NCBI GenBank assembly: GCA_030674475.1
Contig: JAUSCZ010000041.1
Location: forward strand, 3,481-67,480
Length of the DNA: 64,000 nucleotides
DNA from: Candidatus Omnitrophota bacterium
Lineage (GTDB): Bacteria; Omnitrophota; Gorgyraeia; Gygaellales; UBA12090
Reading direction: 5' to 3'
Below are positions 22,046 to 64,000 of this stretch, in pieces. Position 1 is the first letter of the stretch; each line of letters begins with the position of its first letter. Made by a program: the position numbers and the translations under genes. The notes under the pieces were generated by a model. The model had not been told where the DNA came from and searched no databases. It saw nothing but the letters and a program-made list of their open reading frames with translations.

Positions 22046-22094
22046 TATACTTGAAAAAAAAATTATGTCAAGTAAAATCTGCCTCTGGCGCTTA

Positions 22095-22159: not shown

Positions 22160-22174
22160 CTTAGATTTTACTTG

Positions 22175-22194: not shown

Positions 22195-22303
22195 ATTCTA
22201 AAGCTCTGCGAAGAATCTTAAGTTTTTTAAAAAAAATCCCTACGGTTTTACCGCGCGTGTTTATAGCATCCTATTGCTCTGTGAAATTAATTTTTAGCAG
22301 TGT

Positions 22304-22379
22304 GTCATTCCCGTAATCTTTTAGCGGGAATCCAAAAATGAGTTTATCTGGATGCCCGACTAAAACATTCGGGCATGAC
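22304..22379. mobile_element. MITE-like element with gtcattcccg ... cgggcatgac terminal inverted repeats (family P2, copy X)
   Basis: gtcattcccgtaatcttttagcgggaatcca...ggatgcccgactaaaacattcgggcatgac. Same ends and internal hairpins as 47243..47345. Confidence 0.65.
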
Positions 22380-22436
22380 AAAATTATCAAGAACTAATTA
22401 CACAATGTACTAGTTCAACTGATATGCCTGGCCTTT

Positions 22437-28522: not shown

Positions 28523-29830
28523 TCAAGGCAATGTTACTACTTGTTCATATAAGCTCTCAATATCTTTTATCAGCCTTTTTTTGGCGAATCTTTCCCGGAC
28601 GAATTCGCGGCCGGAGGCGGCCATCTTCCTTCTTATCTCTTCATTCCTCAGTAAGAAGTTCAAGGCCCCGGCAAAACTATCCGCGTCGCCAGGCCTCACC
28701 ATTATTCCTCTTTCGCGCGCGCTAAACCCCGTTAGAGGCAGGACGCCAGAGGCGTCCGACGGTTGCCTTCGGCAACCTGCCTCTAACGGGGTAAACCCAA
28801 GCTCATCCTTAGGTCCTTCTAAGCTCTCACCAACTAAATCCTTTACCCCGCCGGCATCGGTAGCCGCGATAACCTTACCTGAAGCCATTGCTTCTATTAA
28901 AGATACCGGCGTGCCTTCGTTGATTGAAGTCAGACAGACAATATCCAAATCCGAGTAAACTTCGGATAAATCCTTTTGCCAGCCGTTAAACTCCACCACC
29001 GAACTTAAATTCAGCTTTTGGGCAAATTCTTCAAGCTCAGCCCTTAATTCTCCATCGCCTATAATCTTAAATCTTAAATCCAGCGCGGGATTATCCCGGA
29101 TAACCTTGGCCGCGCCTTCCAAAAACAAACGATGATTTTTAATAGGCACCAGTCTTCCCACTATGCCGATATTTAAACAACGGTTGGCTTCTTTTCCCGA
29201 TGAAGCGGGATCCCGCATTCCTTGTATCGGGAGTCGGGAAAACGGAAGCCCTAAGAATCTATCTAATTCTAAGCCCAGAGGAATAACCTTAATCTTATCT
29301 GAACCGCTGATTCGTAAAGAAACCAGCTCTTTCTTAACCGCTAAACTTACCGTGATTATCCTTGAGCTAAAACAAGCTAAGAAGCGCTCAATAAAGATAA
29401 ATAATCGCGTTTTAAATCTGCCGAAATAGCCCTCAAAGACATGGCCGTGAAAGGTATGAATAAGCTTTGTTCGCCTCGCGGCCAAGAGATTATAAAATAT
29501 CCCGGCCAGCCTGCCTAATGTTCCGGCCTTGGCGGTATGGGTATGGATAATATCCGGATTTTCCCTCCTTATCAGTTTATATATTTTTAAAAACGCGATT
29601 ACATCATTCAGCGGATTTAATTCCCGTCTAAGCTCAGGGATAATATAAGGGACAACATTCCTGGCCCGGGCGTAATAAAGCATATCTCCTTCATCTTGAG
29701 CGATAGTGCCGCAGACCAAAAGCGAGTCAAATTTATCCTTGTTAAGACCCTCAGTGAGTAAAATCGCGTGAATTGCCGGGCCTCCGATATTAAGCCGGGC
29801 AATGACCCTTACTACCTTTATTTTCTTCAC
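28523..29830 (-). CDS. GT4-family glycosyltransferase carrying an in-frame 69-bp repeat-element insertion
   Basis: 435 aa with the N-terminal GGPAIH and C-terminal EGTPVSLIEAMASGKVIAATDAGG ... VRPGDADSFAGAL GT4 motifs. An extra 23-aa segment PLEAGCRRQPSDASGVLPLTGFS is encoded by P1 copy 2. Confidence 0.8.
   Translation of the reverse strand: MKKIKVVRVIARLNIGGPAIHAILLTEGLNKDKFDSLLVCGTIAQDEGDMLYYARARNVVPYIIPELRRELNPLNDVIAFLKIYKLIRRENPDIIHTHTAKAGTLGRLAGIFYNLLAARRTKLIHTFHGHVFEGYFGRFKTRLFIFIERFLACFSSRIITVSLAVKKELVSLRISGSDKIKVIPLGLELDRFLGLPFSRLPIQGMRDPASSGKEANRCLNIGIVGRLVPIKNHRLFLEGAAKVIRDNPALDLRFKIIGDGELRAELEEFAQKLNLSSVVEFNGWQKDLSEVYSDLDIVCLTSINEGTPVSLIEAMASGKVIAATDAGGVKDLVGESLEGPKDELGFTPLEAGCRRQPSDASGVLPLTGFSARERGIMVRPGDADSFAGALNFLLRNEEIRRKMAASGREFVRERFAKKRLIKDIESLYEQVVTLP
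28727..28791. repeat. 65-bp structured palindromic element, family P1, copy 2, inserted in-frame inside the GT4 CDS
   Basis: ccccgttagaggcagg...cctgcctctaacgggg are perfect 16-bp arms. Inner hairpins ggacgccagaggcgtcc and ggttgccttcggcaacc are in inverted order relative to copy 1. Flanked by taaa/taaa. 65 + 4 = 69 bp = 23 codons. Confidence 0.85.
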
Positions 29831-33044: not shown

Positions 33045-33141
33045 CTTCTAAGTCTCTGGGGACAAAATAAAACCCCGCGCCTTTTCATATTCATGTTTTT
33101 CAAACTAAAATACATAGAATACATAAAAGGCACGGGGTTAA

Positions 33142-33208
33142 CCCCGTTAGAGGCAGGTTGCCGAAGGCAACCGTCGGATGCCTCTGGCGTCCTGCCTCCA
33201 ACTGGGTG
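33142..33208. repeat. Structured palindromic element, family P1, copy 3 (right arm degraded)
   Basis: ccccgttagaggcaggttgccgaaggcaaccgtcggatgcctctggcgtcctgcctccaactgggtg. One hairpin reads ggatgcc/ggcgtcc, a G-U-compatible pairing. Confidence 0.75.
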
Positions 33209-33229
33209 AACACGAATAATTTTTAAAGC

Positions 33230-43983: not shown

Positions 43984-44102
43984 CTCAATAATTATTGATT
44001 TTATTATTCGATCCCGAATTTATTTTCTTCAAAGGTATTCCTAATATGTTTTCCCATGCCTGGAAAGTAACCATCAAATTTCAAGACTTAACTCTTTTCT
44101 CC
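43984..44102. repeat. Island modular repeat, copy A (right two-thirds of the ~170-bp unit)
   Basis: aattattgattttattattcgatcccgaatttattttcttcaaa...gcctggaaagtaaccatcaaatttcaagacttaac. Shared with 48340..48472. The ORF-track entry 43995..44321 lies on it and is spurious. Confidence 0.8.
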
Positions 44103-44221: not shown

Positions 44222-44422
44222 TTATTCGATATCTATCTCTTTTTTTACGTCATTGAACGAAGTGGTAGGAATATCGGCTTCTTTTGATTTAGCGTCCCGC
44301 AGTGCTTTTAGAGCTTCGTAATCTTCAAGCTCTTCCTGAATTTGGACGAATTCCTCATAAGGCAATACGACGAATTCTTTTTTTCCATCTTTTTCTAAGA
44401 TTTTTGTATGTAACGATACCAT
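44222..44422 (-). CDS. Phd/YefM-type antitoxin
   Basis: 66 aa. KEFVVLPYEEFVQIQEELEDYEALKALRDAKS resembles YefM/Phd. Located 12 nt downstream of the RelE/ParE toxin gene. Confidence 0.6.
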   Translation of the reverse strand: MVSLHTKILEKDGKKEFVVLPYEEFVQIQEELEDYEALKALRDAKSKEADIPTTSFNDVKKEIDIE

Positions 44423-44433
44423 TTTCTTCCTCC

Positions 44434-44682
44434 TTATCGATATGCTTCTTTTCTATGCATAATACGGTAGATAATTATTTTATCCTTTTCTGTTTCAAAA
44501 AGAACCCTATAGTCACCTGCTCGCAGGCGATATTCGGGAGAATAATTAGTTAATTTTTTGACATCGCCTTGTAAATCATCGGATAAAACCTCAACTTTTG
44601 AAAATATCAATTGTAATGTTTTCTTATCGATCGATTTGCAGTCTTTTATAGCTTTGGGTTTAAACTCAACTTTATACTTCAT
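44434..44682 (-). CDS. RelE/ParE-family type II toxin
   Basis: 82 aa. YRLRAGDYRVLFETEKDKIIIYRIMHRKEAY is the characteristic C-terminal RelE/ParE motif. Confidence 0.7.
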   Translation of the reverse strand: MKYKVEFKPKAIKDCKSIDKKTLQLIFSKVEVLSDDLQGDVKKLTNYSPEYRLRAGDYRVLFETEKDKIIIYRIMHRKEAYR

Positions 44683-44866
44683 AAGATAATTATACCATAT
44701 TTTGGTGTAATTTCAGTATTTTCATCTAACGAAAAGCTCAGCGTTGCCAACCCCGGGCATTCGCTGGAGCGTCTTGTTAGGAATTTTTACTTTCTTCTAT
44801 TTCTTTTTCTAATCTCAGTTTTATGTCTCTCCTCTAAACCCGCGCCCGTGCTTACTGCCTCAAATA

Positions 44867-45282: not shown

Positions 45283-45440
45283 TTCAGCCTAACGAAATGG
45301 CTAACCCGCCGGGGCATCCACCATCGCAAAAAACTTTAGGGGTCAAACCCGGACATTAGACATTATCTCATCTTTTCCTTAAAAATTACACAATAGTTAT
45401 TGATTTTATTATTCAATTCCGAATTTCTTTTCTTCAAAGC
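45283..45440. repeat. Island modular repeat, copy B (left two-thirds of the unit)
   Basis: ...ctttaggggtcaaacccggacattagacattatctcatcttttccttaaaaattacacaatagttattgattttattattcaattccgaatttcttttcttcaaa. The upstream part (tttcagcctaacgaaatggctaacccgccggggcat) recurs at 44713..44790. Confidence 0.8.
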
Positions 45441-45573
45441 TAAAAACTCTCGCGCTTTATCACTACACCATTGCCTTAACCCACCCGAATAATCATTAAT
45501 TGTCTTCTATTCATCATCCCGCGTATTGTTTTTCAGACCAACCATACATTGCTCAAATGTTTTGATTATGAAT

Positions 45574-46380
45574 TCAGGAGGGCGTAAGGCCTAAATTTTT
45601 TAGTTTACTTATTTCATTCTGATTATATACCCCACTTTTTTCAAGAAGAAATCCTATTGCCTGATGATAAGGATAAACAAAAGCTAACTTCTTTAAAGTT
45701 CTTATTAGATTTTCAATAGAAATCCCTTCTTTTGCTAGTTTATAACAATTTAATATTTCTAATATACCATTCGTATATGATGGCCGAACAACAATATCAA
45801 TTAATGTTCTTTCTAAATTTGTTACTAATACCTTATTTTGATTGAAATATGCTTCTATAACACCGCACATATTAGTATTTTGGCCATTCAATAAATAAAC
45901 CTTATATTCCTTAAAATTAGCTATGTTGGTTGTGACTCGCTGTGTTCTTGAAAATGCAAAATCAATTCTCCCTTGGGATAAGGAAGAGGAATAATTGGAC
46001 GCGGAACTTCTTCTTTGCTCAAAATTTACATAAATTTTGTCTGGTGGGTCATTAATTAACTTGTGAATATATAGCGCTGTTCGGTGTGTATAATATAGAT
46101 TTTTTATAAATGAGAGACAGTATACCCATACGGAAACATCTCCCCAGCTAAAAAGAGAATATTCACGGTTAGGGAATTTAATTGAGGTCTTCTTTAAGTC
46201 TGTACGTTTTAGTAATAATTCTAAAAACTTGAAAGCTGTCATGGTGTTAGGTAGGTCCCATTCCAATCTTTTATCTTCTAGAATGTTCACTATTTCGGTA
46301 AAGGTAAAGATTGATTTCTTGGCTTGTTTGAAATAGTTTTTAATTACATCAAGTTTTGTCTCAAATTTTGAAATTTTCAT
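45574..46380 (-). CDS. Uncharacterised 268-aa protein (possible Abi-like/HEPN-like defense component)
   Basis: No transmembrane or signal features. It contains an R-x5-H segment (HRTALYIH) compatible with, but not proving, a HEPN Rx4-6H motif. It stands alone between island repeat B and the hipB promoter region. Confidence 0.3.
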   Translation of the reverse strand: MKISKFETKLDVIKNYFKQAKKSIFTFTEIVNILEDKRLEWDLPNTMTAFKFLELLLKRTDLKKTSIKFPNREYSLFSWGDVSVWVYCLSFIKNLYYTHRTALYIHKLINDPPDKIYVNFEQRRSSASNYSSSLSQGRIDFAFSRTQRVTTNIANFKEYKVYLLNGQNTNMCGVIEAYFNQNKVLVTNLERTLIDIVVRPSYTNGILEILNCYKLAKEGISIENLIRTLKKLAFVYPYHQAIGFLLEKSGVYNQNEISKLKNLGLTPS

Positions 46381-46638
46381 TTTTTAGATAAGTTTTAAGT
46401 TAAAATTGAGCTTAACTCCTACCGGTATAGTATAAATACTATATCGGTAGAAAGTCAAGTATTTTCTCATTTTCTTCAGTTTAATTATACCCTTTAAGGT
46501 GTAATTATCAAATTTTTTAAATAAAACATTGGCTATTATGCCCTTTAAGGACTATTTGTTTATAATAAAACCCTATCAGGTATAAAAATTTAAAAAATAC
46601 TTGCAATTATACCCGAAAGGTGGTATATTCTTATCACC

Positions 46639-46890
46639 ATGGCCCACTTTCCAATTAATATACAGATTAAGAATCTACGAAAAAAGCTGGGTTTAACTCA
46701 AGTCGATTTCGCGAAAAGAGCAGGGGTAGGTTTGCGTTTCTTAAGAGAGCTGGAAGAAGGCAAGCCTACGGTGCGGTTAGATAAGCTTAATCAAGTTTTG
46801 GATTTCTTGGGTGTTCATCTGGAAATAGCGCGCAATGAAAATATAAAATCTGAATGGACAGATAACAACAAACTTGAAGCAGAATTATGA
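46639..46890 (+). CDS. hipB: HipB-like XRE-family HTH antitoxin/regulator
   Basis: 83 aa with an HTH (LRKKLGLTQVDFAKRAGVGLRFLRELEEGK). The stop overlaps the start of the next gene (ATGA). Confidence 0.7.
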   Translation: MAHFPINIQIKNLRKKLGLTQVDFAKRAGVGLRFLRELEEGKPTVRLDKLNQVLDFLGVHLEIARNENIKSEWTDNNKLEAEL

Positions 46891-47210
46891 AAGAACTTAG
46901 AAAAGGGCAGGTTTTTTTCAATAAGGACTTGGCCGGGGACATTAGCGAAACGAAAGACGGCTATCTTTTTGAATATGATAAAGATTTTTTAAAAAAAAAT
47001 ATACCTGTTTCTATGTCGTTACCTCCCAGAGAAGAGCCTTATGAATCTAAAGAATTATTTCCTTTTTTTAAAGGCCTTTTGCCTGAAGGCTGGTATTTAG
47101 ATATTGTTACCGCTACCCAAAAGGTTGATAGGGAAGACTTGTTTGGTATCCTTCTTTGCACTACGAGCGGTGATACCATTGGCGCGGTAACGGTTCGCAA
47201 GATAGAATGA
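46887..47210 (+). CDS. HipS-like protein (HipA N-terminal subdomain homolog)
   Basis: 107 aa. The YLFEYDKDF...PVSMSLPP... pattern matches the HipA N-terminal (Couple_hipA) region, here as a separate ORF in a HipB-HipS-HipT gene order. Confidence 0.6.
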   Translation: MKELRKGQVFFNKDLAGDISETKDGYLFEYDKDFLKKNIPVSMSLPPREEPYESKELFPFFKGLLPEGWYLDIVTATQKVDREDLFGILLCTTSGDTIGAVTVRKIE

Positions 47211-47242
47211 ACATCATTGCTGTCCAGGTTAGCCATTACAGC

Positions 47243-47345
47243 GTCATTCCCGCAATCTTTTAGCGGGAATCCACGACGAGAGTATTTTCTGGATACCCGC
47301 TTTTCCCGCATAGCGGGATCCCGTAAAGCGGGACGCGGGTATGAC
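47243..47345. mobile_element. MITE-like element (family P2, copy Y) inserted between hipS-like and hipT-like genes
   Basis: gtcattcccgcaatcttttagcgggaatcca...ggatacccgc[ttttcccgcatagcgggatcccgtaaagcgggac]gcgggtatgac. Same termini as 22304..22379, with a nested extra hairpin module. Confidence 0.65.
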
Positions 47346-47407
47346 AAATTCAATATCTCAAAATTCCGTTCCAGTCGACAAGTAATAACTAATTTGGACA
47401 CGAGTGA

Positions 47408-48274
47408 ATGAACATAAAACTTATTAAAGAGATGTTTAATACTTCTAAACTGCCGATAATAGATTTCGGCTTGGAAGATGTTTCTCAAAAAGCGCAGAAA
47501 TCGGCGGGGAAGTTATCCATTTCCGGGGTTCAGCCGAAATTATCCATGAAGCTTGATAAGAAAAATAATGCGTTAATTTCTGTTGCTGAAGGCGGAGAAT
47601 ATATTTTAAAACCCCAAACCGTGGCTTTCCCGAATATTCCTGAGAATGAACAGTGTTGTATGGACATAGCGGCGGAGTTTAAGATAGCTGTTCCTCCTCA
47701 TTGTCTCTTGCCTTTAAAAGATAAAAGCTGGGCGTATATTGTGAAAAGATTTGACAGGGAATCAGGCGTGAAAATCCATCAGGAAGAATTCTTTCAAATA
47801 TTAGAATCAGGAAATAAATACCAAGGTTCCGTTGAACAAATTGGGCGTAAATTAAAAGAAATATCTACCGCGCCCGGATATGACGTGCAATTATTTTTTG
47901 AGAGGGTTGTCTTTAATTTTATTATTGGAAACGGAGACGCCCATTTAAAGAACTATTCAATCGCGTATAAGGATAAAGAAACTATCCGCTTAACGCCGGC
48001 CTATGATATGGTATGTTCAAAATTGGTGATTCCGGATGAAGAAGATTCCGCCTTATCTATCAACGCCAAAAAGAATGAACTGAAAAGAGATGATTTTGAT
48101 AAGTTGGCGGAGTATTTAAATATACCGATAAGAATTCGCTATGAAAAATTCGAAAAGAGCTTGATTTTAATGGAAACAATAATTAAAAATTCAAAAATTA
48201 AGCAAGAGATTCAGGAGCGATTTATTAACATCATTAAAGAGCGCTTATCACGTATGAACATAGCGGCAGAATAA
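47408..48274 (+). CDS. HipT/HipA-like serine/threonine kinase toxin (kinase core)
   Basis: 288 aa with the ISGVQPKLSM P-loop-like motif and the catalytic GNGDAHLKN (D-x-H-x-K-N) motif of HipA-family kinases. Confidence 0.7.
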   Translation: MNIKLIKEMFNTSKLPIIDFGLEDVSQKAQKSAGKLSISGVQPKLSMKLDKKNNALISVAEGGEYILKPQTVAFPNIPENEQCCMDIAAEFKIAVPPHCLLPLKDKSWAYIVKRFDRESGVKIHQEEFFQILESGNKYQGSVEQIGRKLKEISTAPGYDVQLFFERVVFNFIIGNGDAHLKNYSIAYKDKETIRLTPAYDMVCSKLVIPDEEDSALSINAKKNELKRDDFDKLAEYLNIPIRIRYEKFEKSLILMETIIKNSKIKQEIQERFINIIKERLSRMNIAAE

Positions 48275-48283
48275 AGAAAAGTT

Positions 48284-48472
48284 TAAAAAGCTTTAAGGGC
48301 CACCCGGACATTAGATACCATCTAATCTTTTCCTTAAAAATTAGAGACAATACTTAATTATTGATTTTATTATTCGATCCCAAATTTTTTCTTCAAAAAT
48401 ATCCCTTATTTGCTTTCCCCTGCCTGGAAAGTAACCATCAAGTTTCAAGACTTAACCTTTTTCTTTTCTCCG
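48284..48472. repeat. Island modular repeat, copy C (full-length ~170-190-bp unit)
   Basis: ctttaagggccacccggacattagataccatctaatcttttccttaaaaattagagacaatacttaattattgattttattattcgatcccaaatttttt...gcctggaaagtaaccatcaagtttcaagacttaacc. The ORF-track entry 48361..48591 is spurious. Confidence 0.8.
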
Positions 48473-48833
48473 GCATAGATGCTTTTAGCATCTCAAACAG
48501 CCTGTCTTTGATATTCAGCGATTCCCGCTCCGCTTTTTGGATATTCTTATTTTTTACCATTTCCCGGTCTTTCTTTCAACAATTTCTCTAGGTGATAACT
48601 TTGCATCTTGTTAGGCTTCGATTTACTGTTGAACCACCTATTAACTGTAACGCGGAAAATCTGCGATAGGTTTCTTACTTTCTAAGATATTTATGATCAA
48701 AATAAAAAGGATAAATTTTATCCCTTAACAAGATGGTTCCAATTGCTATGAGAGCTATACCACAATATGTTAAGAATGTTCCCATGTCTTCCTTTTCTCC
48801 GTTTCGAACTCTCCGCGCGTGTTCTCTTTACGC

Positions 48834-49475
48834 CTAAGAAGTTAAGAATCGATTTAATTCATTTACTAAAAAATGCACAGTCGTAGAAGGTCTCCTTAAG
48901 CTAGCTGTATGAATAGGCAGATATTGTGACATTAGTTTTTCAGCGTTTCTTATGCCATCATTCTGTTTGCTTAGAATAAGATCATACATTTCTATGCTAT
49001 TCTTTGTATAGGGCTTCCCTAATAACTCACTTAGTCTTTTGATGTATTCGGGACGATTCCTAGCATTTTGCGTATAATGGAAATGAAGCAAATACCATAA
49101 TTCAAAACACTCATTTGAGTAAGCAATATTGATTTTGTGTTTTCTTGCTAGTGAAATAGCCTTTTCAAAATTTTTATCCGGGTTGTCGTCTTTATCAAAC
49201 ACACACCAAATTTGGTCAAATTTTATACCATATCTTGCAGCCGCTTCTTTATGCTTTATTGTTTTTTCTACAAGAGACACTGTGTTATCGCCTATCCCAA
49301 ATATTTCATCTTCTACCTGAGAGGAAGTTAAACGAAAACTTCGAAAATAATTTGGTTCAGTTTTTTCGCCCTCACAGATAATTAGAAACGTTTCTCGCAC
49401 AGGTTTGACAGCGACCCTTCGCTTAAGAATTCCCGACTGTTTTCTTTTCCAAAACGCGCTATCCGGCTCTTTCAT
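48834..49475 (-). CDS. RloB-like protein (AbiLii-like; Toprim-like)
   Basis: 213 aa with the N-terminal FLIICEGEKTEPNYF signature of the RloB family. It overlaps the upstream ATPase gene by 4 nt. Confidence 0.65.
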   Translation of the reverse strand: MKEPDSAFWKRKQSGILKRRVAVKPVRETFLIICEGEKTEPNYFRSFRLTSSQVEDEIFGIGDNTVSLVEKTIKHKEAAARYGIKFDQIWCVFDKDDNPDKNFEKAISLARKHKINIAYSNECFELWYLLHFHYTQNARNRPEYIKRLSELLGKPYTKNSIEMYDLILSKQNDGIRNAEKLMSQYLPIHTASLRRPSTTVHFLVNELNRFLTS

Positions 49476-50722
49476 CTTTTAAATAAAGAATTGGTTCCTT
49501 TTACAACTGGGATCGCTCCGTATTTTCCTGCTATATAATCTTTCTCAAAAGATGCGTCATTCCTAACCTTGTATTCTACTAAAGAGTATAAATCTGTGGC
49601 TCCGTATTTATTTTTTTCGGTAAGCCATATTTGATCTCTCCTAAAAATGGCCCGGTTAAATAAATTGGTGTTATGCGAAACAAAAACTAGTTGAGCATTA
49701 TTAGGGTTATTCTCCCTGGAATTAAATAACTCTATTAAGAATTTAATTAAAATAGGATGCAATTTGGCATCCAGTTCATCTATTACTAACACATTGCCTT
49801 TTTTTAGCGTATCTAATATTGGAGCTGAGATAGCAAAGAATTTTTTTGTGCCAGCCGATTCTTCGAAATCAAAATCAAATTTTTCTAACTGAAAGGTTTT
49901 ATTATCAATATCGTACTTCTTATGAAAAGCATTAATTTTAAAGTCTACAAGCTCATCATCGGGTTTAATTTTGGTTTTTATTCCATCGGGCAGATCCTCA
50001 ATCCTTATTTTTGTTTCCTCAATACCAACATCCTCTATGCCTAAATCCGCAAATTTCGTAAATTTCATAATTTCATTTTTGAATTCAGTATCTTGAAGTT
50101 TTCTTAATGTAAATTCTAAATAACTAGTATCTGTTAAGGCGGTAAGGACCTTAAATTTTTTAAACCACTGGAATATTTTTCCGGCTATCGGACCATTAAA
50201 TTGAGCAACAACGGATAGAAAAAGTGCATTATCCCTGGTTTTATCTTTAAGCCCCTTGCCTTCCTTGAAATGGCCCCCAATAGTAAAATTATCAGGCTCT
50301 CTTATAAATAATCTTGTTTCTTTTCTTATTGGAACATAGAAAAGCCACTCTCTATGTATTTTTTCTTTATCGGCCTGAAAGCCATATCGGTATCTAATTC
50401 TTTCATGCATAAAAATAATTTCAAAGGTGCTGGGTTGATTTTCTGTTTCAGTACTAAGCTTAAATCTAGTAACTTTTATTTTGTCGGTAACATCTTTTGT
50501 CGAAAACAGAACAAAGGATTTTACAAAACGCATTGCTTGGATTAAATTAGACTTTCCGCTAGCATTTGCGCCATAAATAACAGCGTTCTTCAACAGCCTT
50601 AATTTATCTTTGGCAATAAATGTATTCGTTTCTTCATGCTCTTTCCTTGCTGTTGCCATCAGACTTATGGTGGCTATGTCTTTAAATGATTTAAAGTTGC
50701 CTACGCTAAATTGTATTAGCAT
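49472..50722 (-). CDS. AAA_21/OLD-like ATPase (AbiLi-like)
   Basis: 416 aa. Walker A GANASGKSN at the N-terminus, with a distant Walker B/D-loop (VLVIDELDAKLHP), typical of ABC/OLD-type AAA_21 ATPases paired with RloB. Confidence 0.65.
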   Translation of the reverse strand: MLIQFSVGNFKSFKDIATISLMATARKEHEETNTFIAKDKLRLLKNAVIYGANASGKSNLIQAMRFVKSFVLFSTKDVTDKIKVTRFKLSTETENQPSTFEIIFMHERIRYRYGFQADKEKIHREWLFYVPIRKETRLFIREPDNFTIGGHFKEGKGLKDKTRDNALFLSVVAQFNGPIAGKIFQWFKKFKVLTALTDTSYLEFTLRKLQDTEFKNEIMKFTKFADLGIEDVGIEETKIRIEDLPDGIKTKIKPDDELVDFKINAFHKKYDIDNKTFQLEKFDFDFEESAGTKKFFAISAPILDTLKKGNVLVIDELDAKLHPILIKFLIELFNSRENNPNNAQLVFVSHNTNLFNRAIFRRDQIWLTEKNKYGATDLYSLVEYKVRNDASFEKDYIAGKYGAIPVVKGTNSLFKR

Positions 50723-55373: not shown

Positions 55374-58300
55374 CTATTTATTCTTCTTTTTTACCTCTAT
55401 ACCGTTAGAATGGCCTCCTTTTGACCATTGGCCGGCGCCGTTTTTAGCCTTGACATTAAAATAATACTCTTTCCCGGTCTTAAGCTTTAGGCTAGGGACA
55501 GTAACCGAGGTATTTGTCCCGGCAGAGGTCCAATCCAGGGCATTGGTTTTGCCTTTAGCAGTGCCGATGGAATACTGATATTCGCTAATCCCGGATTCCT
55601 TGTCTGAGCTTGACCAGGAAGCGGAAAGCTTATTATGTGAACGGGTATGCTCTTTACCGTCCTTAACCTTGGGCTTTTCCGGGACAGAGGTATCCACAGT
55701 AACGGTATCGCTGTATACGGAAGACCAGTTACCGGCGGCATCCTTGAATTTAGCATAGACTGTTTTCTTGCCGCTTCCAAAAGATAAACTCCAAGTCTTG
55801 GCCGTAGAATAGGTTTCAGCGCTGGACCAATTACTGTTATCGTTAGAAAACATCATTTCTGACAAGCCGCTGGAAGAATCCGAAGCGGAAAGCATTAAAA
55901 CAACATCGGATTGGGCCGTATAAGAGGCATTATTATTTATCTTTATTGAGCCGCTGGGGGAAGCAGTATCAATTTTAATGGCTGACTCAGCACTCTTAAC
56001 TGTTTCAGAGTTGCCGGCTTTATCAATAGAATAGTATCTTATGCTATAAGTGCCTTCCGTGGATAAAGTAAAGGGAGAGCTATAGGTGAGTGCCGGGTCA
56101 GAACCGTCGGTGGAATAATAGGTCTTGTCCACTCCGGAGACGGAATCCGAGGCAGTTAAAGTAATGGTTACCGAGGCCTTATTCCAGCTATCCGAATCTA
56201 CCCCGGATAATTCCGTGGAAGGCGCGGTCTTATCAATCTTAACCGAAGCAGTCTTGGTTGACTCGGAATTCCCGGCCTTATCCTGAGAATAATATTTTAT
56301 GTTATAACTGCCGTCCTCGGCCATGGTAAAAGGGCCGCTATATGCGCCTACAGCGCTGGAAACATCGGTAGAATAATAGGTCTTGTCCACTCCGGAGGCG
56401 GAATCCGAGGCGGTCAGGGTAATTGTAACTGCCTCTGTATGCCAATCCTCACTATCTCCTAAACCCGACATAGCCGTAGAAGGCGCGGCCTTATCAATCT
56501 TAACTTGATAATCCGCGGTTTTAATTGATTCAGAGTTTCCGGCCTTATCAATAGAATAATATTTTATGGAGTAGGTTCCATCGTCAGATAATGTAAAAGG
56601 CCCGTCATAGGTAGCTGTGGGGTCAGAACCGTCGGTGGAATAATAGGTCTTGTCCGCTCCGGAGACGGAATCCGAGGCGGTTAAAGTAATGGTTACCGAG
56701 GCCTTATTCCAGCTATCCGAATCTACCCCGGATAATTCCGTGGAAGGCGCTGTGCTGTCAACGGTAATTCCGTCAGAATACCCCGTGTCCGACCAAAGCT
56801 CAGCTTCATTTTTGGCCTTGACGCTAAAATAATAAGTCGCGCCCTCGCTTAAGCTAAGCCCGGACTTAGTTACGGATATATCCGTTCCGGCGGATGTCCA
56901 GCCAGTCATATCTGTCGCGCCTGAAGAAGTACCAATGGCATATTGATATTCCAAGATCGCGGATTCATTGTCGGAGCTCGACCAGCCGGCATAAAGCAGA
57001 TCGGTTTTAACCGTATATTGGCCTTCATCCGTTACTTCAGTGGTAGAGGGAGCGGTTGAGTCTTGGGTATCGCTGTCAGCGCCAACCTCAGTTACATAAA
57101 CATTAAAGGTATCCGCCTCGTCTTCCCTGATCCAGACAACCTTATTCCCGGATATGGCCACACCCTGATCCGCCTGTTCACTCACAGTAAGCCTTTTTTC
57201 TTCATCCGTATTCAAATCGTAAAGATAGATATCGGAGTTTCCATTTCTCTCATCCAGATACACAATCTTCTTACCGGATATCGCGCAATACCAGGGATTG
57301 GCCTCATCGCCGGTAATCCTCTTTTCCTCTTTAGAATCCAAATCATAGAGATAGACATCGGTATGGCTGTTACGGCTGTCCAGATAAACCACCCTTTTGC
57401 CGGAAATCCGCGGGCTATAAGGCGAACCGCTGGTATCTGAATTGATTTTGGACTCTTCAGCGCTTTCTAAATCGTATAAATAAACATCACTGCCGACGCG
57501 CTTATCCTGCCAGACTATCTTTTTTCCGGATATCGCGGGGTCCGAAGGATAAGATTCCGCGGAGTTCATTGCCTGCTTTTCTCCTTTATCCAGGTCATAG
57601 AGATAGACGCTTGCGCTATCGCCGTCAGAATCCTCAAGCCAGACGATCTTACTCCCGGAAATGGAAAGGTAATATTTGTCGGATTCGGTTTCGCCGGTAA
57701 TCAGGGTCTCTTCTTTGCTATCCAAATCATAAACATAAATCGGCCACTTGTATTTGTAAGAAGTCTCGCTATCCCGGCTATCATAGAAAACCACCTTGCT
57801 GGCGCAAAGGAAAGGAAACCTCCGGTTGGCCTGAGAGGAAGAGCTAAAAGAAAGTTTTTCTTCCTGGTTAGCCTCTAAATCATAAGAATACAACTCGTAG
57901 TAATCCCCGCTCTTATAGGCCCAGATAATCTTATCTCCGTCAATGGCCGGGCGATTTTCTTCCAGGGCGTCTTTCGCGCTCGCGGAATTAAGCTTCTTTA
58001 TCCCTAAGTGGGTCTGAATATTCAGGGTTCTATCGTCACTTCCCAGCGCGGTCAGGGTTAAAGAAAAATCCACTATCTTCTCGCCGGTAAAAGAAGAAAC
58101 CGCCTTAAACTTAAAAGGGCTGGCGGAATTACTTAGAGAGCCGTCTTTCTTAATTGTGCCGTATTCATAAGAGGATGCGCTTATATTCACATCCGAGTCC
58201 TCTGTGCTCAAAGCGCCCTGCACTGAATAGGCGTCGCCTCCGGTATTCTTGATTTCCACAGTCAGGATAGCCTCTTCATCCTCTTCCACCATCCCATCCC

Positions 58301-60002
58301 CATCTCCGGAAGATTCGCTCACCGCAGCCGAAACAATCTCAAAAGCAGGATCTTCATCGGCAAGCAGGCCGTTAAAGACATTTACCCGGCCTGAGCCCAA
58401 TTTCCCGGAGTATCCGGAATTAAGGCTGTCTATATTATCGGCTGAAGAGGTAATTTTGGCCTTAATCTCACTCTGGGTATAGTCAGGATACTGGCTGATA
58501 ATTAAGCCAGCCAATCCGGCAACATACGGAGAGGCCATAGAAGTGCCTTCAATCGGATCACCCTGGTAAGAACTGCTATAACCCGAAGAATCCGCCAAAA
58601 ATCCCGATGTAGGAACCGTGCTTAATATCCCGCTGTCTTTGGTGCTGTCGCCTCCGGGAGCAAAAACATCCACCCAATCACCGTAATTAGAATAACTGGC
58701 CTTGGTATCATCTTTAGCAGTCGCGCCTACCGCTATAACATTATCAAAAGCCGCGGGATAACAATATGTCTTATCTTCTGTTTCCTCATTTCCGGCGGCC
58801 ACGACAATTATCACGCCCTTAGAATAGGCGTCATCTATTGCTTCTTTTACGGTTTTCAATTTTAAGGATGTTCCGCCGCCAAAACTCATATTCATCACAT
58901 CCGCGCCGTTATCCGCGGCATATTTTATAGCTGAAGCCACATCATCAACTTCAAACAATCCATAGACGTAAGTATTGTCGCTTATGGCAAAACCGGCTCT
59001 CACCGGCATTATCTTACAATCATAACATACCCCGGCTACTCCGAGGCCATTATTCCCCTTGGCCGCGGCTATCCCCGCGACATGCGTGCCGTGGCCGTAA
59101 TAATCTTTTGGCTCATAATCAATTTCCGCGTAATCCTCATCTGAAAATAACACATAGCCCTTATCGGTATAACTGCTAGTTTCAATATTCACAAAGTCCT
59201 TACCCGGATTACCGTCGGCATCATTCCAGATGTTGTCCTTTAAATCCTCGTGATTATAATCAACGCCCGAGTCAATGACCGCGATAATCGTATCCGAATC
59301 ACCGGCATTTATCTCCCATCCGCTTTCAGCCTGGGTATTCTGATGCGCCCACTGCTGGCTGTATTTGGCGTCATTGGGAGCTAGATTGGCCCTGAGAACA
59401 TAATTCGGCTCAGCGTATTCCACCGCCGGACTTTCTTCATAATCAGCCGTCATTTGGGATATATCAGCATCCGAGTCCTGAGTCTTTAAGAGATAAATGC
59501 TTTCCAGGCTGGAAGAGGCCTGTCCACTGTTAAGCGCGCGCTTCTGTCTCTTTTCCAGGCGCAAGATCAGCTCCTCCTGCTTCTTAATCTTTCCCCGGAT
59601 TTCTTCCTTATCCTTTTCTATCCTTTGTTGATAATCCTTATATTCCTGGGAGTCTTTATCCAACTGCCAATACCATCTTTGGTGTTCAACATCAAGCTTG
59701 GCCAAATCCTCTTTAAGGCCGGACAGGACATTTTCCGGATTAGGGGCATCCTTAAATACCCCTTCCATAGAGCTTACTTTATATTTGGAGTTTAATTCTT
59801 GCAAGTCAGTTGTAGTTTTGCTTTCTTTCAGCTTAACTATCAACTGGCCGGGGACATAACTCGCGGGGTCTAATTTTTTAGCCGATATGCCGGAAGGAAG
59901 ATGAGCCTCTTCTGCTAATGCTATGGGAAACAGTGTCAACAGCAGACTTAATATTGCAGTTTGATAAAGTTTTAATTTTGTATTTTGCGAAAATGTCCTC
60001 AT
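55374..60002 (-). CDS. Giant secreted subtilisin-like (S8) serine peptidase with beta-propeller repeats and tandem Ig-like (chitobiase/hexosaminidase C-terminal-like) domains
   Basis: 1542 aa. Signal peptide, a peptidase_S8 triad context (VIDSGVDYNHEDL Asp, HGTHVAGIAA His, GTSMASPYVAG Ser), six ~45-aa YLYDL...IVW repeats, then three ~92-aa repeats (TYYSTDGSDP...YSIKYYSIDKAGNSE). Confidence 0.85.
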   Translation of the reverse strand: MRTFSQNTKLKLYQTAILSLLLTLFPIALAEEAHLPSGISAKKLDPASYVPGQLIVKLKESKTTTDLQELNSKYKVSSMEGVFKDAPNPENVLSGLKEDLAKLDVEHQRWYWQLDKDSQEYKDYQQRIEKDKEEIRGKIKKQEELILRLEKRQKRALNSGQASSSLESIYLLKTQDSDADISQMTADYEESPAVEYAEPNYVLRANLAPNDAKYSQQWAHQNTQAESGWEINAGDSDTIIAVIDSGVDYNHEDLKDNIWNDADGNPGKDFVNIETSSYTDKGYVLFSDEDYAEIDYEPKDYYGHGTHVAGIAAAKGNNGLGVAGVCYDCKIMPVRAGFAISDNTYVYGLFEVDDVASAIKYAADNGADVMNMSFGGGTSLKLKTVKEAIDDAYSKGVIIVVAAGNEETEDKTYCYPAAFDNVIAVGATAKDDTKASYSNYGDWVDVFAPGGDSTKDSGILSTVPTSGFLADSSGYSSSYQGDPIEGTSMASPYVAGLAGLIISQYPDYTQSEIKAKITSSADNIDSLNSGYSGKLGSGRVNVFNGLLADEDPAFEIVSAAVSESSGDGDGMVEEDEEAILTVEIKNTGGDAYSVQGALSTEDSDVNISASSYEYGTIKKDGSLSNSASPFKFKAVSSFTGEKIVDFSLTLTALGSDDRTLNIQTHLGIKKLNSASAKDALEENRPAIDGDKIIWAYKSGDYYELYSYDLEANQEEKLSFSSSSQANRRFPFLCASKVVFYDSRDSETSYKYKWPIYVYDLDSKEETLITGETESDKYYLSISGSKIVWLEDSDGDSASVYLYDLDKGEKQAMNSAESYPSDPAISGKKIVWQDKRVGSDVYLYDLESAEESKINSDTSGSPYSPRISGKRVVYLDSRNSHTDVYLYDLDSKEEKRITGDEANPWYCAISGKKIVYLDERNGNSDIYLYDLNTDEEKRLTVSEQADQGVAISGNKVVWIREDEADTFNVYVTEVGADSDTQDSTAPSTTEVTDEGQYTVKTDLLYAGWSSSDNESAILEYQYAIGTSSGATDMTGWTSAGTDISVTKSGLSLSEGATYYFSVKAKNEAELWSDTGYSDGITVDSTAPSTELSGVDSDSWNKASVTITLTASDSVSGADKTYYSTDGSDPTATYDGPFTLSDDGTYSIKYYSIDKAGNSESIKTADYQVKIDKAAPSTAMSGLGDSEDWHTEAVTITLTASDSASGVDKTYYSTDVSSAVGAYSGPFTMAEDGSYNIKYYSQDKAGNSESTKTASVKIDKTAPSTELSGVDSDSWNKASVTITLTASDSVSGVDKTYYSTDGSDPALTYSSPFTLSTEGTYSIRYYSIDKAGNSETVKSAESAIKIDTASPSGSIKINNNASYTAQSDVVLMLSASDSSSGLSEMMFSNDNSNWSSAETYSTAKTWSLSFGSGKKTVYAKFKDAAGNWSSVYSDTVTVDTSVPEKPKVKDGKEHTRSHNKLSASWSSSDKESGISEYQYSIGTAKGKTNALDWTSAGTNTSVTVPSLKLKTGKEYYFNVKAKNGAGQWSKGGHSNGIEVKKKNK
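55865..56705. repeat. Three tandem ~276-bp intragenic repeats (domain duplications) within the S8 peptidase gene; units 1 and 3 are near-identical at DNA level
   Basis: gtcttgtccactccggagacggaatccgaggc...ccggataattccgtggaaggcgc occurs near 56120 and near 56650. Confidence 0.7.
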
Positions 60003-61877: not shown

Positions 61878-64000
61878 TTAAATTACTATGTTTACCAATT
61901 TTCCGGGAACCACGATAATTTTCTTTGCCGGCTTATCCTCAATCCACTTCTTTATTCCCGGCTCGTTCAGACAACGCTGTTTTAATTCCTCTTCCGCGAT
62001 ATCTTTGCTGACCACGATAGTGCCTCGGTGTTTACCGTTTATCTGAATCACGATGGTGATATTTTCTTCCGTCAGCAGGCTTTCATCGGCTCGCGGCCAT
62101 GGGGCTCGCGTTATGCTTTCGCTGTGGCCTAAGCCCTGCCAGAGCTCCTCGCTAAAGTGCGGGGCAATCGGAGAAATTAAGACAACTAACTGGGAAAAAA
62201 CCTCTTTATCCGCTCCTGACTGATATATGGCATTAACCAACTCCATCAGGCCGGCGATAGCGGTGTTGAATTTAAATTCCTCTATATCGGCGGTAACCTT
62301 TTTGATGGCCTTATGCAGAGCGCGGTAAACTTGAAGGTCGGCCTTTTCTTTTAAGTTATCCTGGATGCGCCAGAGGCGGTTGAGAAATTTAAAGGCCCCC
62401 TCTATCCCCCGGTCATCCCACTCCAGCTCAGTCTCCGGGGGAGCGGCAAAAAGGATAAACAACCTTAAGGTATCCGCGCCGTATTTCTGAATTATGGAAT
62501 CCGGGTCAACAATATTGCCCCGGGATTTTGACATTACCTCGCCGTCTTTTAAAACCATACCCTGGGTGAGCAGGGATTTAAAAGGTTCGTGGAAATCTAT
62601 CATTCCCAAATCCTGAAAGAACTTGGTGAAAAAACGCGAATATAACAAATGTAGGATGGCGTGCTCAATCCCGCCGATGTATTGATCAACCGGCATCCAA
62701 TATTTGGCTTCTTTAACGTCAAACGGATTATTCTCATCTTGGGGTGAACAGAATCTCAAGAAATACCAGGAAGAATCAAAGAAGGTGGCCATAGTATCGG
62801 TTTCCCGGCGGGCTTTTTCCTGGCATTTAGGACAAACGGTATCCACAAATTCCTTAACCTTGCCTAAAGGACTACCCCCCTCACCGGTAAAAGGCGCATC
62901 TTCAGGAAGCTCCACCGGTAGGGCCTCGTAGGGCACCGGAACAATCCCGCATTTCGGGCAATAAACAATCGGAATAGGTGTTCCCCAATAACGTTGGCGG
63001 GAGATAAGCCAATCCCGAAGCCGCCAATGGGTTACAATTTTACCCATACCCTCTTTCTCCATCCATTGGGCAATTTTAATCTTAGCCTCTTGGTTCGCCA
63101 GGCCGTCAAACTCCCCGGAATTAACCTGTAGACCATCACCCTCATAGGCTTCCCTCATTTCTTCCGGTGACCTGGTGACCTGGTGACCTGGTGACTTTAT
63201 CACAATTCGCATTGGCAAATTGTGTTCTTTAGTAAACAAGAAATCCCTCTGGTCATGGGCAGGCACAGCCATAATCGCGCCTGTGCCGTATTCCATCAAC
63301 ACATAGTCGGCAATCCAGACCAGAATAACTTCCCGGTTAACCGGATTAATGCAATAGGCCCCGGTCCAAACCCCTTCTTTTTTTACATCTTCTTTAACCC
63401 GGGATATTTTGCTCTCCTGAGATACCCTCTCTATAAAGGTTAAGGCCTCTTTTTCTTGCGGTCTACCCCGGATAATCTCTTTTACTAAGGGGTGTTCCGG
63501 CGCCAAAACCACATAGGTTGCCCCGAAAATAGTATCCGCTCGGGTGGTAAAGACCGTAATTACCTTATCGCTATCTTTCAGGCGAAAATATATTTCCGTC
63601 CCCTGGCTCTTTCCAATCCAGTTGCTCTGCATGGCGATAACCCGCGGGGGCCATTTATCCAACTGCTTCAAATCCTCCAGCAGACGCTCCTTGTATTCGG
63701 TAATCTTCAGATACCACTGTTCCAGCTCTTTCTGCTCCACCGGACTGTGGCACCTCCAGCATTCACCCTCAATAACCTCTTCATTGGCCAGAGTGGTTGA
63801 GCAGGAAGGGCACCAGTTAACCCCGGAGGCCTTTTTATACGCTAAGCCGCGCTCAAACATCTTCAGGAATATCCACTGGTTCCATTTATAATAACTGCTG
63901 TCGCAGGTGGAAAGCTCCCGCTCCCAATCATAGGAAAAACCCATCTTCTTTAATTCCACCTTCATCCACTCAATACACTTATGGGTCCAATCATCCGGCT
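61878..64000 (-). CDS. leuS: Leucyl-tRNA synthetase, C-terminal ~700 aa (N-terminus beyond the window end); carries an in-frame octamer-repeat insertion
   Basis: Editing-domain and anticodon-binding regions with a KMSKS motif (VMSKSRGN). The ORF-track start at 63965 is internal. The inserted segment SPGHQVTRSP is encoded by 63157..63197. Confidence 0.9.
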   Translation of the reverse strand, partial: PDDWTHKCIEWMKVELKKMGFSYDWERELSTCDSSYYKWNQWIFLKMFERGLAYKKASGVNWCPSCSTTLANEEVIEGECWRCHSPVEQKELEQWYLKITEYKERLLEDLKQLDKWPPRVIAMQSNWIGKSQGTEIYFRLKDSDKVITVFTTRADTIFGATYVVLAPEHPLVKEIIRGRPQEKEALTFIERVSQESKISRVKEDVKKEGVWTGAYCINPVNREVILVWIADYVLMEYGTGAIMAVPAHDQRDFLFTKEHNLPMRIVIKSPGHQVTRSPEEMREAYEGDGLQVNSGEFDGLANQEAKIKIAQWMEKEGMGKIVTHWRLRDWLISRQRYWGTPIPIVYCPKCGIVPVPYEALPVELPEDAPFTGEGGSPLGKVKEFVDTVCPKCQEKARRETDTMATFFDSSWYFLRFCSPQDENNPFDVKEAKYWMPVDQYIGGIEHAILHLLYSRFFTKFFQDLGMIDFHEPFKSLLTQGMVLKDGEVMSKSRGNIVDPDSIIQKYGADTLRLFILFAAPPETELEWDDRGIEGAFKFLNRLWRIQDNLKEKADLQVYRALHKAIKKVTADIEEFKFNTAIAGLMELVNAIYQSGADKEVFSQLVVLISPIAPHFSEELWQGLGHSESITRAPWPRADESLLTEENITIVIQINGKHRGTIVVSKDIAEEELKQRCLNEPGIKKWIEDKPAKKIIVVPGKLVNIVI
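63157..63197. repeat. 40-bp octamer-repeat element inside leuS (encodes SPGHQVTRSP), followed by the hairpin cacaattcgcattggcaaattgtg
   Basis: atttcttccggtgacctggtgacctggtgacctggtgactt. Identical core to 25370..25409. Confidence 0.85.

Follow-up and report, generated by a model that had tools for sequence, protein, structure and literature searches.

The locus at 46419-48274 raises the question of what becomes of a tripartite toxin-antitoxin operon when a mobile element settles between its antitoxin and toxin genes. It lies in a window of 64,000 nt, the whole stretch analysed (GCA_030674475.1, JAUSCZ010000041.1:3,481-67,480, forward strand), from a Candidatus Omnitrophota bacterium, the sequence being the consensus of a metagenome-assembled genome (MAG). 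Comparison with related sequences makes it nearly certain that the locus is a HipBST-type tripartite toxin-antitoxin operon with a MITE insertion at the hipS-hipT junction. The whole explanation, which joins the HipBST identity and the insertion to a damped output of HipT, is given a probability of roughly 0.8. Taken alone, the locus is an ordinary HipBST module of a known family; the insertion is lineage-specific.

The original prediction of an XRE-HTH protein, a homologue of the HipA N-terminal subdomain and a kinase core, in the order hipB-hipS-hipT, is borne out by domain models and by the same order in about 90 related loci, where it is held wherever the contig extends far enough upstream. 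The three genes are co-oriented on the plus strand. hipB (46639-46890) comes first and encodes a predicted 83-aa XRE-type HTH repressor, which matches Pfam HTH_3 (2.8e-11) and TIGR03070 couple_hipB (79.3 bits, cutoff 71.65); its C-terminal tail is variable, with no conserved Trp. hipS (46887-47210) encodes a 107-aa homologue of HipA N-subdomain 1, the predicted antitoxin (Couple_hipA, 2.6e-24), and shares with hipB the expected ATGA overlap at 46887-46890. The predicted toxin is the product of hipT (47408-48274), a HipA-like Ser/Thr kinase core of 288 aa in which the HipA_C match (1.8e-47) spans residues 36-238 and the GNGDAHLKN motif occupies residues 174-182. On sequence comparison with PDB entries, the best matches of HipT and HipS are solved HipT and HipS chains, far stronger than full-length HipA. 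HipT matches HipT(Lp) of Legionella pneumophila at 2.4e-44 (aligned over residues 15-285) and HipT of Escherichia coli O127 at 4.3e-23 (only residues 6-203), as against ∼4e-5 for HipA; HipS matches HI_0666 at 7e-16, HipS(Lp) at 2e-13 and HipS of O127 at 6e-12, as against ∼0.04 for the HipA N-terminus.

These comparisons bear on the possibility that there was never a true three-gene system here, and that the mobile element or a frameshift cut the full-length hipA of a hipBA module in two. HipS and HipT do jointly resemble full-length HipA, and the TIGR03070 HipB model also goes with HipA-type loci; yet the reading is scarcely credible and is already refuted by comparative sequence data, as hipS ends at a stop codon of its own before the insertion is reached, uninterrupted relatives keep hipS and hipT as separate overlapping genes, kinases of 286-293 aa are standard across hundreds of homologues, and the HipT and HipS matches stand far above those to HipA. 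As judged from its homologues, the operon is a member of a large, well-conserved HipBST clade of Omnitrophota, which has thousands of homologues in metagenomes and goes unmentioned in the Hip kinase phylogeny paper PMC8262856. The rule in this clade is that hipB, hipS and hipT adjoin or overlap by a few bases.

The three reading frames are intact, together with the catalytic and regulatory residues that can be recognised in the alignments. Only one of the 109 conserved columns of HipT deviates, by a conservative change, and none does so in HipS or HipB; dN/dS is 0.07-0.15 across the operon genes (0.07-0.14 for hipT). HipT lacks N-subdomain 1, and retains the Gly-rich loop, the ATP-binding Lys and the catalytic and Mg-binding motifs. 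Residues S37, I38, K68, D177, H179, N182 and D200 are invariant in the family alignment, with D177 aligning to the catalytic D210 of O127 HipT and D200 to the Mg-binding D233. The putative dual autophosphorylation motif of the Gly-rich loop (S-psi-S), S37-I38-S39, which aligns to (S57A)-I58-S59 of 7ab3, is kept in 74-76 of 76 relatives. A structural model of HipT, built with 42 close homologues, had a mean pLDDT of 48.9, too low for similar folds to be sought with it, and the assignment relies instead on sequence comparison with solved chains. By analogy with the systems of E. coli O127 and Legionella, free HipT would arrest growth by phosphorylating an essential translation factor, which in E. 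coli is an aminoacyl-tRNA synthetase; the Legionella enzyme does not act through TrpS or GltX (bioRxiv 10.1101/2022.11.26.518041).

The assignment of the 107-aa protein is also supported by its predicted structure (pLDDT 74.5), for which the top five fold matches are all HipS or HipA-N chains, those of HipS ranking first; the TM scores are modest (0.42-0.52). E67 and W69, which all 67 HipS sequences share, lie in a PEGW motif that aligns with PEGW of O127 HipS (Glu63/Trp65). By the same analogy, HipS may neutralise the HipT kinase through insertion of the conserved W69 near the Gly-rich loop. One relative (L008) has an apparently truncated hipS, owing to two single-base deletions in T runs; this is probably an assembly error and not a case of a relative without HipS.

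The closest solved relative of both HipT and HipS is HipBST of L. pneumophila (Lpg2368-2370; PDB 7vkb, 8ezr), which shares the hipB-hipS-hipT order and in which HipB binds the promoter region. Other open reading frame boundaries there overlap by 4 bp, like those of uninterrupted clade members (bioRxiv 10.1101/2022.11.26.518041), whereas hipS and hipT of the Omnitrophota locus are separated by a MITE. The Legionella Gly-rich loop has S-psi-Q with a single phospho-site, whereas the Omnitrophota kinase has S-I-S, as in E. coli O127, and is about 20 residues shorter at its N-terminus. The HipBST of enteropathogenic E. coli O127:H6 (PDB 7ab3-7ab5) likewise has three genes, an SIS motif (S57/S59, corresponding to S37/S39) and a HipB without a conserved C-terminal Trp, and its overlapping genes suggest translational coupling (PMC6581861). 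It is more distant, with a HipT of 335 aa against 288 and a HipB of 107 aa against 83; TrpS has been shown as the target there, and the Omnitrophota copy differs in its 197-bp spacer. E. coli K-12 HipBA has a homologous kinase core and an HTH repressor, but HipA is a single 440-aa protein, HipB with its C-terminal Trp is the antitoxin, and the target is GltX.

Comparison with empty sites reveals how the toxin gene came to be separated. In L001-L005, in the relatives that are 94-96% identical and altogether in about 90 related loci, hipS and hipT meet in an uninterrupted ATGA overlap, which is the ancestral state as read from the alignments; of 87 related loci, 84 have a distance of −8 to +8 bp between the two genes, as against 197 bp here. 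An element of 192 bp (47215-47406), absent at the same site in relatives, together with a 9-bp target-site duplication, accounts for the full difference of 201 bp, close to the 200 bp or so predicted originally. On this sequence evidence, the MITE landed exactly on the ATGA in which the hipS stop and the hipT start overlapped, in this genome alone, and apparently recently. The left copy of the duplication (47206-47214, AATGAACAT) contains the hipS stop and the originally coupled ATG, and the right copy (47407-47415, AATGAACAT) provides the hipT ATG (47408-47410); hipS stop and hipT ATG are thus both preserved. A duplication of 10 bp (GAATGAACAT) was considered and rejected because its G belongs to the element end, which reads ...GAGTG in three copies, leaving 9 bp. 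The old coupled ATG now opens an ORF of 18 codons (47207-47263, plus strand), which encodes MNIIAVQVSHYSVIPAIF up to its stop and reads into the left arm of the MITE; it is a by-product of the insertion, and any function is speculative.

The core repeat of the element is present in high copy and often lies at contig ends of other assemblies, so that a repeat-induced misjoin in the MAG could be suspected of having placed it at the junction. Such an artefact is very improbable, since the sequence on either side matches that of uninterrupted relatives base for base in its order, and the element is bracketed by a perfect 9-bp duplication, which a misjoin would not make. As the sequence is a MAG consensus, the insertion is possibly not fixed in the population.

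The 103-bp MITE described originally (47243-47345) is real and does separate hipS from hipT; however, it is merely the hairpin core, with GTCATTCCCG...CGGGTATGAC ends, of the 192-bp element. The terminal inverted repeats of the latter are 18 bp long (CATTGCTGTCCAGGTTAG at 47215-47232 on the left and CTAATTTGGACACGAGTG at 47389-47406 on the right), and TGTCCAGGTTAG at 47221-47232 has its inverted partner at 47389-47400. The arms were found by BLAST against loci retrieved through a 30-mer of the core; an exact 22-mer search of metagenome contigs with the left arm gave no match. Three copies (this locus, L052 and L067) have the same ends, the latter two standing at unrelated sites as the whole 192-bp element with 9-bp duplications of one mismatch each. 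The alternative of two nested elements, a 103-bp MITE inside an outer one of 88 bp, was rejected, as L052 and L067 show the whole unit moving with its own duplications, and members of the wider family are likewise built of a core between two inverted repeats. The window contains a second copy (about 22271-22413, core near 22304). In GTDB representative genomes the core 30-mer occurs at least 80 times, mostly in Omnitrophota, with more than 40 of these copies in one MAG. In its size, lack of coding capacity, inverted repeats of about 18 bp, 9-bp duplication, structured core, copy number of dozens per genome and empty site in relatives, the element resembles bacterial MITEs, the non-autonomous derivatives of insertion sequences (IS). 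The Omnitrophota family, with its GTCATTCCCG...ATGAC hairpin core, could be assigned to no named family or parent IS. As RNA, the MITE is predicted to fold at −76.1 kcal mol−1 (z = −6.9), and an Rfam scan of 46300-48500 gave sub-threshold chance matches only.

Sequence and predicted folding suggest that the insertion would break the termination-reinitiation coupling of hipS to hipT, and translational uncoupling of the two genes is a reasonable inference. The hipT start now lies 197 nt downstream without a Shine-Dalgarno motif, and would be paired in the terminal stem of the MITE; the predicted mean unpaired probability of the start region is 0.18, as against 0.50 at the uninterrupted junction. 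Shine-Dalgarno motifs precede 17 of 36 long ORFs, against a background of 14%, which indicates that the organism uses them; none was seen upstream of hipB, hipS or hipT. With coupling lost, no Shine-Dalgarno motif and a buried start, reduced translation of the toxin is the likeliest outcome: HipT synthesis would fall relative to HipS, giving a damped or partly disarmed toxin arm. Such damping without any broken gene, as suggested by the folding and the missing motif, is favoured with some reserve, and would account for the tolerance of the insertion.

The same loss of coupling, missing Shine-Dalgarno motif and start within a stem of −76 kcal mol−1 are also what would be expected if hipT were fully silenced, an early-stage pseudogene, with the locus acting as HipB and HipS only; the orphan pair could then neutralise HipT copies elsewhere in the genome. 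As the insertion is unique and apparently recent, the intact hipT ORF is no proof of use, and nor is the low dN/dS, which mostly reflects pre-insertion history. Nevertheless, full silencing appears doubtful, though worth keeping in view: hipT is intact apart from the one conservative change, translation of the new short ORF might continue to bring ribosomes over the left arm of the stem, and there is no second hipBST among the window ORFs examined.

Another outcome, in which the insertion leaves the proportion of HipT to HipS unchanged or even increases it, is improbable. MITE hairpins can stabilise flanking mRNA, so that the hairpins might protect the hipT part of the transcript, or a weak outward promoter might act; toxin expression would then be freed from HipS translation, as the original prediction had proposed. 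Against this, no plus-strand sigma-70-like site was found within 47215-47406, the predicted fold pairs the hipT start region, and an excess of toxin should be counter-selected. Nor was any intrinsic terminator or terminator-like site found inside the insert.

Beside the favoured damping, it is conceivable, as a long shot, that the MITE rewired rather than merely broke the hipS-hipT coupling. Ribosomes ending hipS would reinitiate at the ORF at 47207-47263, melt the MITE stem and transiently expose the hipT start, for which the predicted probability of being unpaired would increase from 0.18 to 0.44 when the 18-codon ORF is translated, the ancestral junction having 0.50. If this holds, HipT synthesis would still depend on translation of HipS, through a structure-gated relay created in one transposon step.

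The locus amounts to an experiment of nature, precise to the base, on what translational coupling does in a toxin-antitoxin system of three components. The operon is found both with the 201-bp spacer and without it, every codon being kept, and so it is directly testable how coupling contributes to the HipS:HipT ratio. The locus also puts on record a MITE family of an uncultured phylum that is present in high copy, and of which the target-site duplication is defined and an empty site is available; among the top literature matches, no paper linked MITEs, toxin-antitoxin operons and translational coupling.

Upstream of hipB, the predicted hipBST promoter (46601-46629, plus strand) consists of a −35 TTGCAA, a 17-bp spacer and an extended −10 TGgTATATT, the latter only 9 nt from the hipB ATG, so that the transcript, with a predicted start at about 46635-46639, would be near-leaderless. 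The promoter is nearly invariant among loci whose kinases are 62-95% identical. The region upstream of hipB carries four operator-like palindromes of 18-20 bp, of the form TATACC-N6/8-GGTATA. Three upstream repeats had been noticed before, and those at 46488-46500 and 46539-46550 do fit TRCCCNNNAAGG; the one at 46610-46625 has a spacer one base shorter than first given, and a fourth site was overlooked. Site A (46486-46503, TATACCCTTTAAGGTGTA) has one mismatch to TATACC-N6-GGTATA and lies within 51 bp that are found in the window and in L008 and are missing from L001-L004. Site B (46537-46554, TATGCCCTTTAAGGACTA) has a degenerate right half and a position conserved in relatives, and the overlooked site C (46567-46584, AAAACCCTATCAGGTATA) carries the motif CCCTATCAGG. 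Site D (46608-46627, TATACCCGAAAGGTGGTATA) is a perfect TATACC-N8-GGTATA, lies between the −35 and the −10 and overlaps the latter (TATATT at 46624-46629), as had been claimed; it is the most conserved non-coding block of the family.

The loose palindrome pattern is not enriched across the window (12 matches against 12.7 expected in shuffles), and window-level statistics were therefore set aside as evidence; the significance of the sites rests on their clustering and conservation across loci. In the clade, arrays of 2-5 such palindromes cover the promoter, and over 50 loci their density upstream of hipB is 16.5 per kb against a background of 0.24 per kb, an enrichment of about 68-fold. This phylogenetic footprinting supports well the proposal that the repeats are candidate HipB operators. 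By analogy with E. coli O127 and Legionella, in which HipB alone represses or binds the promoter (PMC10627512; bioRxiv 10.1101/2022.11.26.518041), HipB dimers would bind the palindromes and repress the hipBST promoter. The clade sites, of TATAC-N8-GTATA type, share the 18-bp geometry of the E. coli HipB operators TATCC-N8-GGATA (PMC3920265), four of which lie over the promoter of K-12 hipBA. The unusually clean and conserved array makes the clade suited to studies of HipB-DNA recognition.

Outside hipBST, a divergent gene on the minus strand (45574-46380) encodes a 268-aa AbiEi-like protein (PADLOC AbiEi, 4.8e-18; no Pfam match). No AbiEii-sized gene was seen after it among the ORFs, and it appears to be an orphan without an AbiEii nucleotidyltransferase partner. 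The 32-bp near-palindrome at 46419-46450, with 15-nt arms that are 93% complementary and 2 nt apart, is real and faces this gene as originally described; it is, however, probably not a HipB operator, because its sequence is unlike the TATACC...GGTATA sites and it shares bases with the −10 of a promoter on the minus strand (TTGACT-18-TATACT, 46458-46429). The AbiEi family is autoregulatory, and the palindrome is probably the operator/−10 region of the AbiEi-like gene promoter. The palindrome is retained, its arms altered, in L001, L008, L093 and L100, where it has a conserved AAGTCAAG beside it; L093 and L100 also have AbiEi-like homologues in divergent orientation upstream of hipB, and remnants of them are found in L005-L007.

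The three-ORF layout of the original prediction is borne out: hipB (46639-46890, 83 aa) encodes an XRE-type HTH protein, hipS (46887-47210, 107 aa) overlaps it in ATGA fashion, and hipT (47408-48274, 288 aa) carries GNGDAHLKN at residues 174-182. The window sequence is a MAG consensus, and its proteins are 100% identical to entries of one Candidatus Omnitrophota MAG; functional assignments at the locus are drawn from homology, comparative genomics and RNA folding. Family models assigned HTH_3 to HipB (2.8e-11), which also scored above the curated cutoff of TIGR03070 ('couple_hipB'), the HipA N-terminal domain Couple_hipA to HipS (2.6e-24) and the HipA_C kinase core to HipT (1.8e-47). Among solved structures, HipT matches Legionella HipT (2.4e-44 over residues 15-285) and HipT of E. 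coli O127:H6 (4.3e-23), the match to full-length HipA being far below both (only about 4e-5). TrpS is not assumed as the HipT target, as the closest solved relative, Legionella HipT, is itself without a known target. HipS matches H. influenzae HI_0666, Legionella HipS and O127 HipS (7e-16 to 6e-12). The five best fold-search hits of its AlphaFold model (pLDDT 74.5) are solved HipS or HipA-N chains, followed by the HipA N-terminus and then noise; the TM scores are modest (0.42-0.52), and together with the Couple_hipA match these hits uphold the claimed homology to the HipA N-subdomain. The HipT model was too poor for use (pLDDT 48.9).

Residue-level alignment placed S37-I38-S39 of HipT on the Gly-rich-loop motif S57-I58-S59 of O127 HipT, and D177 and D200 on the catalytic D210 and the Mg-binding D233, so that both the Ser-Ser P-loop and the catalytic Asp singled out for checking are present. 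HipS E67 and W69 align to O127 E63 and W65, a pair demonstrated to block the kinase (PMC10627512). These key HipT and HipS positions are invariant or nearly so in 67-76 family members. The C-terminal tail of HipB is variable in the family alignment and has no conserved Trp, like the reported HipBST repressor and unlike the K-12 HipB antitoxin. As judged from sequence, the locus appears to possess every sequence-testable defining feature of HipBST except the tight hipS-hipT junction.

HipT has 3638 homologues at E <= 1e-20, the best 120 of which are 262-311 aa long (mostly 286-293 aa), a range indicating that it is not truncated. The Hip kinase phylogeny lists 48 clade III HipT kinases and makes no mention of Omnitrophota (PMC8262856). 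Ninety-one related loci, partly redundant, were gathered, and the order hipB-hipS-hipT holds wherever the contig extends far enough upstream. The tight coupling claimed for HipBST systems was recovered in 84 of the 87 main-survey loci with both genes readable (gap -8 to +8 bp); the 40-53 bp gaps of the other three are probably an effect of start-codon choice. The three closest relatives (kinases 94-96% identical) all display a 4-bp ATGA overlap, and the 197-bp gap of the window is the sole real outlier. In another related locus, L008 (2650-3000), hipS has lost one base at each of two points within T homopolymer runs, and hipB has a 30-bp insertion close to its end; to judge from the contig name the assembly is a long-read one, and these are probably sequencing errors rather than signs of a HipS-less module.

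The junction of uninterrupted relatives reads ...AAGATAGAATGAACAGAAAACTT..., and that of the window ...AAGATAGAATGAACAT[192 bp]AATGAACATAAAACTT..., with 201 extra bases, in agreement with the predicted addition of about 200 bp by a MITE. The 103-bp segment first taken for the MITE (47243-47345, ends GTCATTCCCG...CGGGTATGAC) is real and has a relative at 22304. It is merely the core of a 192-bp element (47215-47406), flanked by a 9-bp target duplication, AATGAACAT (47206-47214 and 47407-47415), since the whole unit, with common ends and architecture, is seen elsewhere. Other Omnitrophota MAGs carry elements with these ends (CATTGCTGTCCAG...GACAYGAGTG) at two unrelated sites, one between glutamine synthetase and glutamate synthase genes (L052) and one at another place (L067), each with its own 9-bp duplication containing one mismatch. 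GTDB representative genomes contain an internal 30-mer of the element in at least 80 stretches, most of them from Omnitrophota. A single MAG accounts for more than 40, many lie at contig ends, and the copies have the architecture inverted repeat-hairpin core-inverted repeat in common. A second, shorter family member lies at ~22271-22413 in the window (inverted repeats CTATTGCTCTGTGAAATTA...TAATTACACAATGTACTAG, 79-bp core), closely like one in the element-bearing locus L081.

The element went in exactly where the hipS stop codon and the hipT start codon overlap, and therefore the duplication left hipS its TGA and regenerated the hipT ATG and first codons. The original coupled ATG now starts an 18-codon ORF running into the MITE. 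The tight junction was lost through a datable insertion, at the one position that would uncouple toxin from antitoxin translation yet spare both genes. The genes show no decay: HipT departs from the family at one (I201M) of its 109 highly conserved columns, HipS and HipB at none, and dN/dS is 0.07-0.15, the underlying divergence being mostly older than the insertion. The picture is that of a well-behaved HipBST operon of an under-studied phylum, bearing a lineage-specific MITE.

Only 9 nt separate the promoter -10 from the hipB ATG, which makes a near-leaderless hipB probable. A Shine-Dalgarno-like 4-mer precedes 17 of 36 long ORFs of the window (background 14%) but none of the three hip genes. 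Expression of hipS and hipT therefore plausibly hangs on ATGA coupling, which has been proposed for O127 (PMC6581861). Neither a plus-strand promoter-like nor a terminator-like site was found inside the insert, which folds as a long stem closed by its own inverted repeats (-76.1 kcal/mol, z = -6.9). The mean unpaired probability of hipT -18 to +6 is 0.18 in the window versus 0.50 at the junction of L001, a close relative, and reaches 0.44 when the new short ORF is held single-stranded. The best-supported reading is that the stem and the lost coupling would lower HipT translation relative to HipS; a change towards less toxin is the safe one, and would account for the insertion being tolerated.

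The repeats predicted upstream of hipB are present, at four sites rather than three and with a larger motif: A (46486-46503, TATACCCTTTAAGGTGTA), B (46537-46554, TATGCCCTTTAAGGACTA), C (46567-46584, AAAACCCTATCAGGTATA) and D (46608-46627, TATACCCGAAAGGTGGTATA). The -35 (TTGCAA) and the extended -10 (TGgTATATT) flank site D, which overlaps the latter, as predicted. Window and L008 share the four-site state; in L001-L004, 51 bp are missing and with them one site. In more distant relatives the upstream sites are near-perfect palindromes, e.g. TATACCCTTTAGGGTATA. Across 50 non-redundant loci, the 200-bp stretches preceding hipB contain 165 sites, a density of 16.5 per kb compared with 0.24 per kb elsewhere in these loci; the sites are regularly placed, with 2-5 per promoter and 3 or 4 the commonest numbers. 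A loose operator pattern showed no enrichment across the whole window, and the case for candidate HipB operators is thus made by this clustering and conservation. E. coli hipBA has four TATCC-N8-GGATA operators of the same 18-bp geometry (PMC3920265), and in O127 (PMC10627512) and Legionella (bioRxiv 10.1101/2022.11.26.518041) HipB represses or binds the promoter by itself.

The 32-bp palindrome (46419-46450) exists, with 15-nt arms 93% complementary, and overlaps the -10 of a minus-strand promoter, TTGACT-18-TATACT (46458-46429). In L001, L008, L093 and L100 it is kept with altered yet complementary arms, and the adjoining AAGTCAAG (reverse complement TTGACT) is conserved. The divergent 268-aa gene (45574-46380 (-)) matches the PADLOC AbiEi model (4.8e-18) and gave no Pfam match. 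AbiEi proteins autoregulate via inverted repeats in their own promoters. The -10 overlap, the conservation and this autoregulation make the palindrome more likely the promoter/operator of the AbiEi-like gene than the proposed HipB site. Homology between window and L001 begins near the palindrome and ends about 30 bp past the hipT stop. The AbiEi-like gene appears to be an orphan with no AbiEii adjoining; in several further metagenomic loci (L093, L100, L005-L007) homologues or remnants of it stand divergently upstream of hipBST, a possible sign of a repeated association.

The module is part of a TA/defence island. On its upstream side, beyond the AbiEi-like gene, is a RelE-like pair (44222-44682), an 82-aa ORF assigned to RelE/ParE by reading the sequence alone (44434-44682 (-)) and then a 66-aa ORF (44222-44422 (-)); a palindrome, TATACCATATTTTGGTGTA (44691-44709), lies just upstream of the former's start, and the pair is probably another autoregulated TA pair. 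Directly downstream of hipT are AbiLii (RloB-like, 213 aa) and AbiLi (AAA_21 ATPase, 416 aa) (48834-50722 (-)); in L001-L003 the same pair is found ahead of hipB, and the surroundings of hipBST have thus been rearranged. A direct repeat of 110-170 bp occurs three times (43986-44100, 45330-45442, 48284-48464; AAAAARCTTTARGGG.C.ACCCGGACATTAGA...ATTATTGATTTTATTATTCGATCCCGAATTT...TTCTTCAAAG...). Its copies bracket the RelE-like cassette and the segment that holds the AbiEi-like gene and hipBST, and suggest a cassette-like array or a repeated junction element of the island. HipT and HipS weakly match the PADLOC candidate defence system PDC-M03 (A: 1.6e-9; B: 8.7e-6); pairs of HipA-like kinase and HipS-like protein have thus already been flagged as candidate phage defence.

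Other repeats in the window include an 8-bp unit, CCTGGTGA, in short tandem arrays (24921-24971, 25367-25417, 63155-63213), and a different, dispersed family of three 82-nt GC-rich copies with internal hairpins (CCCCGTTAGAGGCAGG...CCTGCCTCTAACGGGG; 22083-22164, 28715-28796, 33130-33211). A 1542-aa ORF (55374-60002 (-)) contains, at 55967-56761, a ~260-270-nt unit present in three tandem copies that are 61-83% identical, indicating that the predicted product is a repeat-domain protein.
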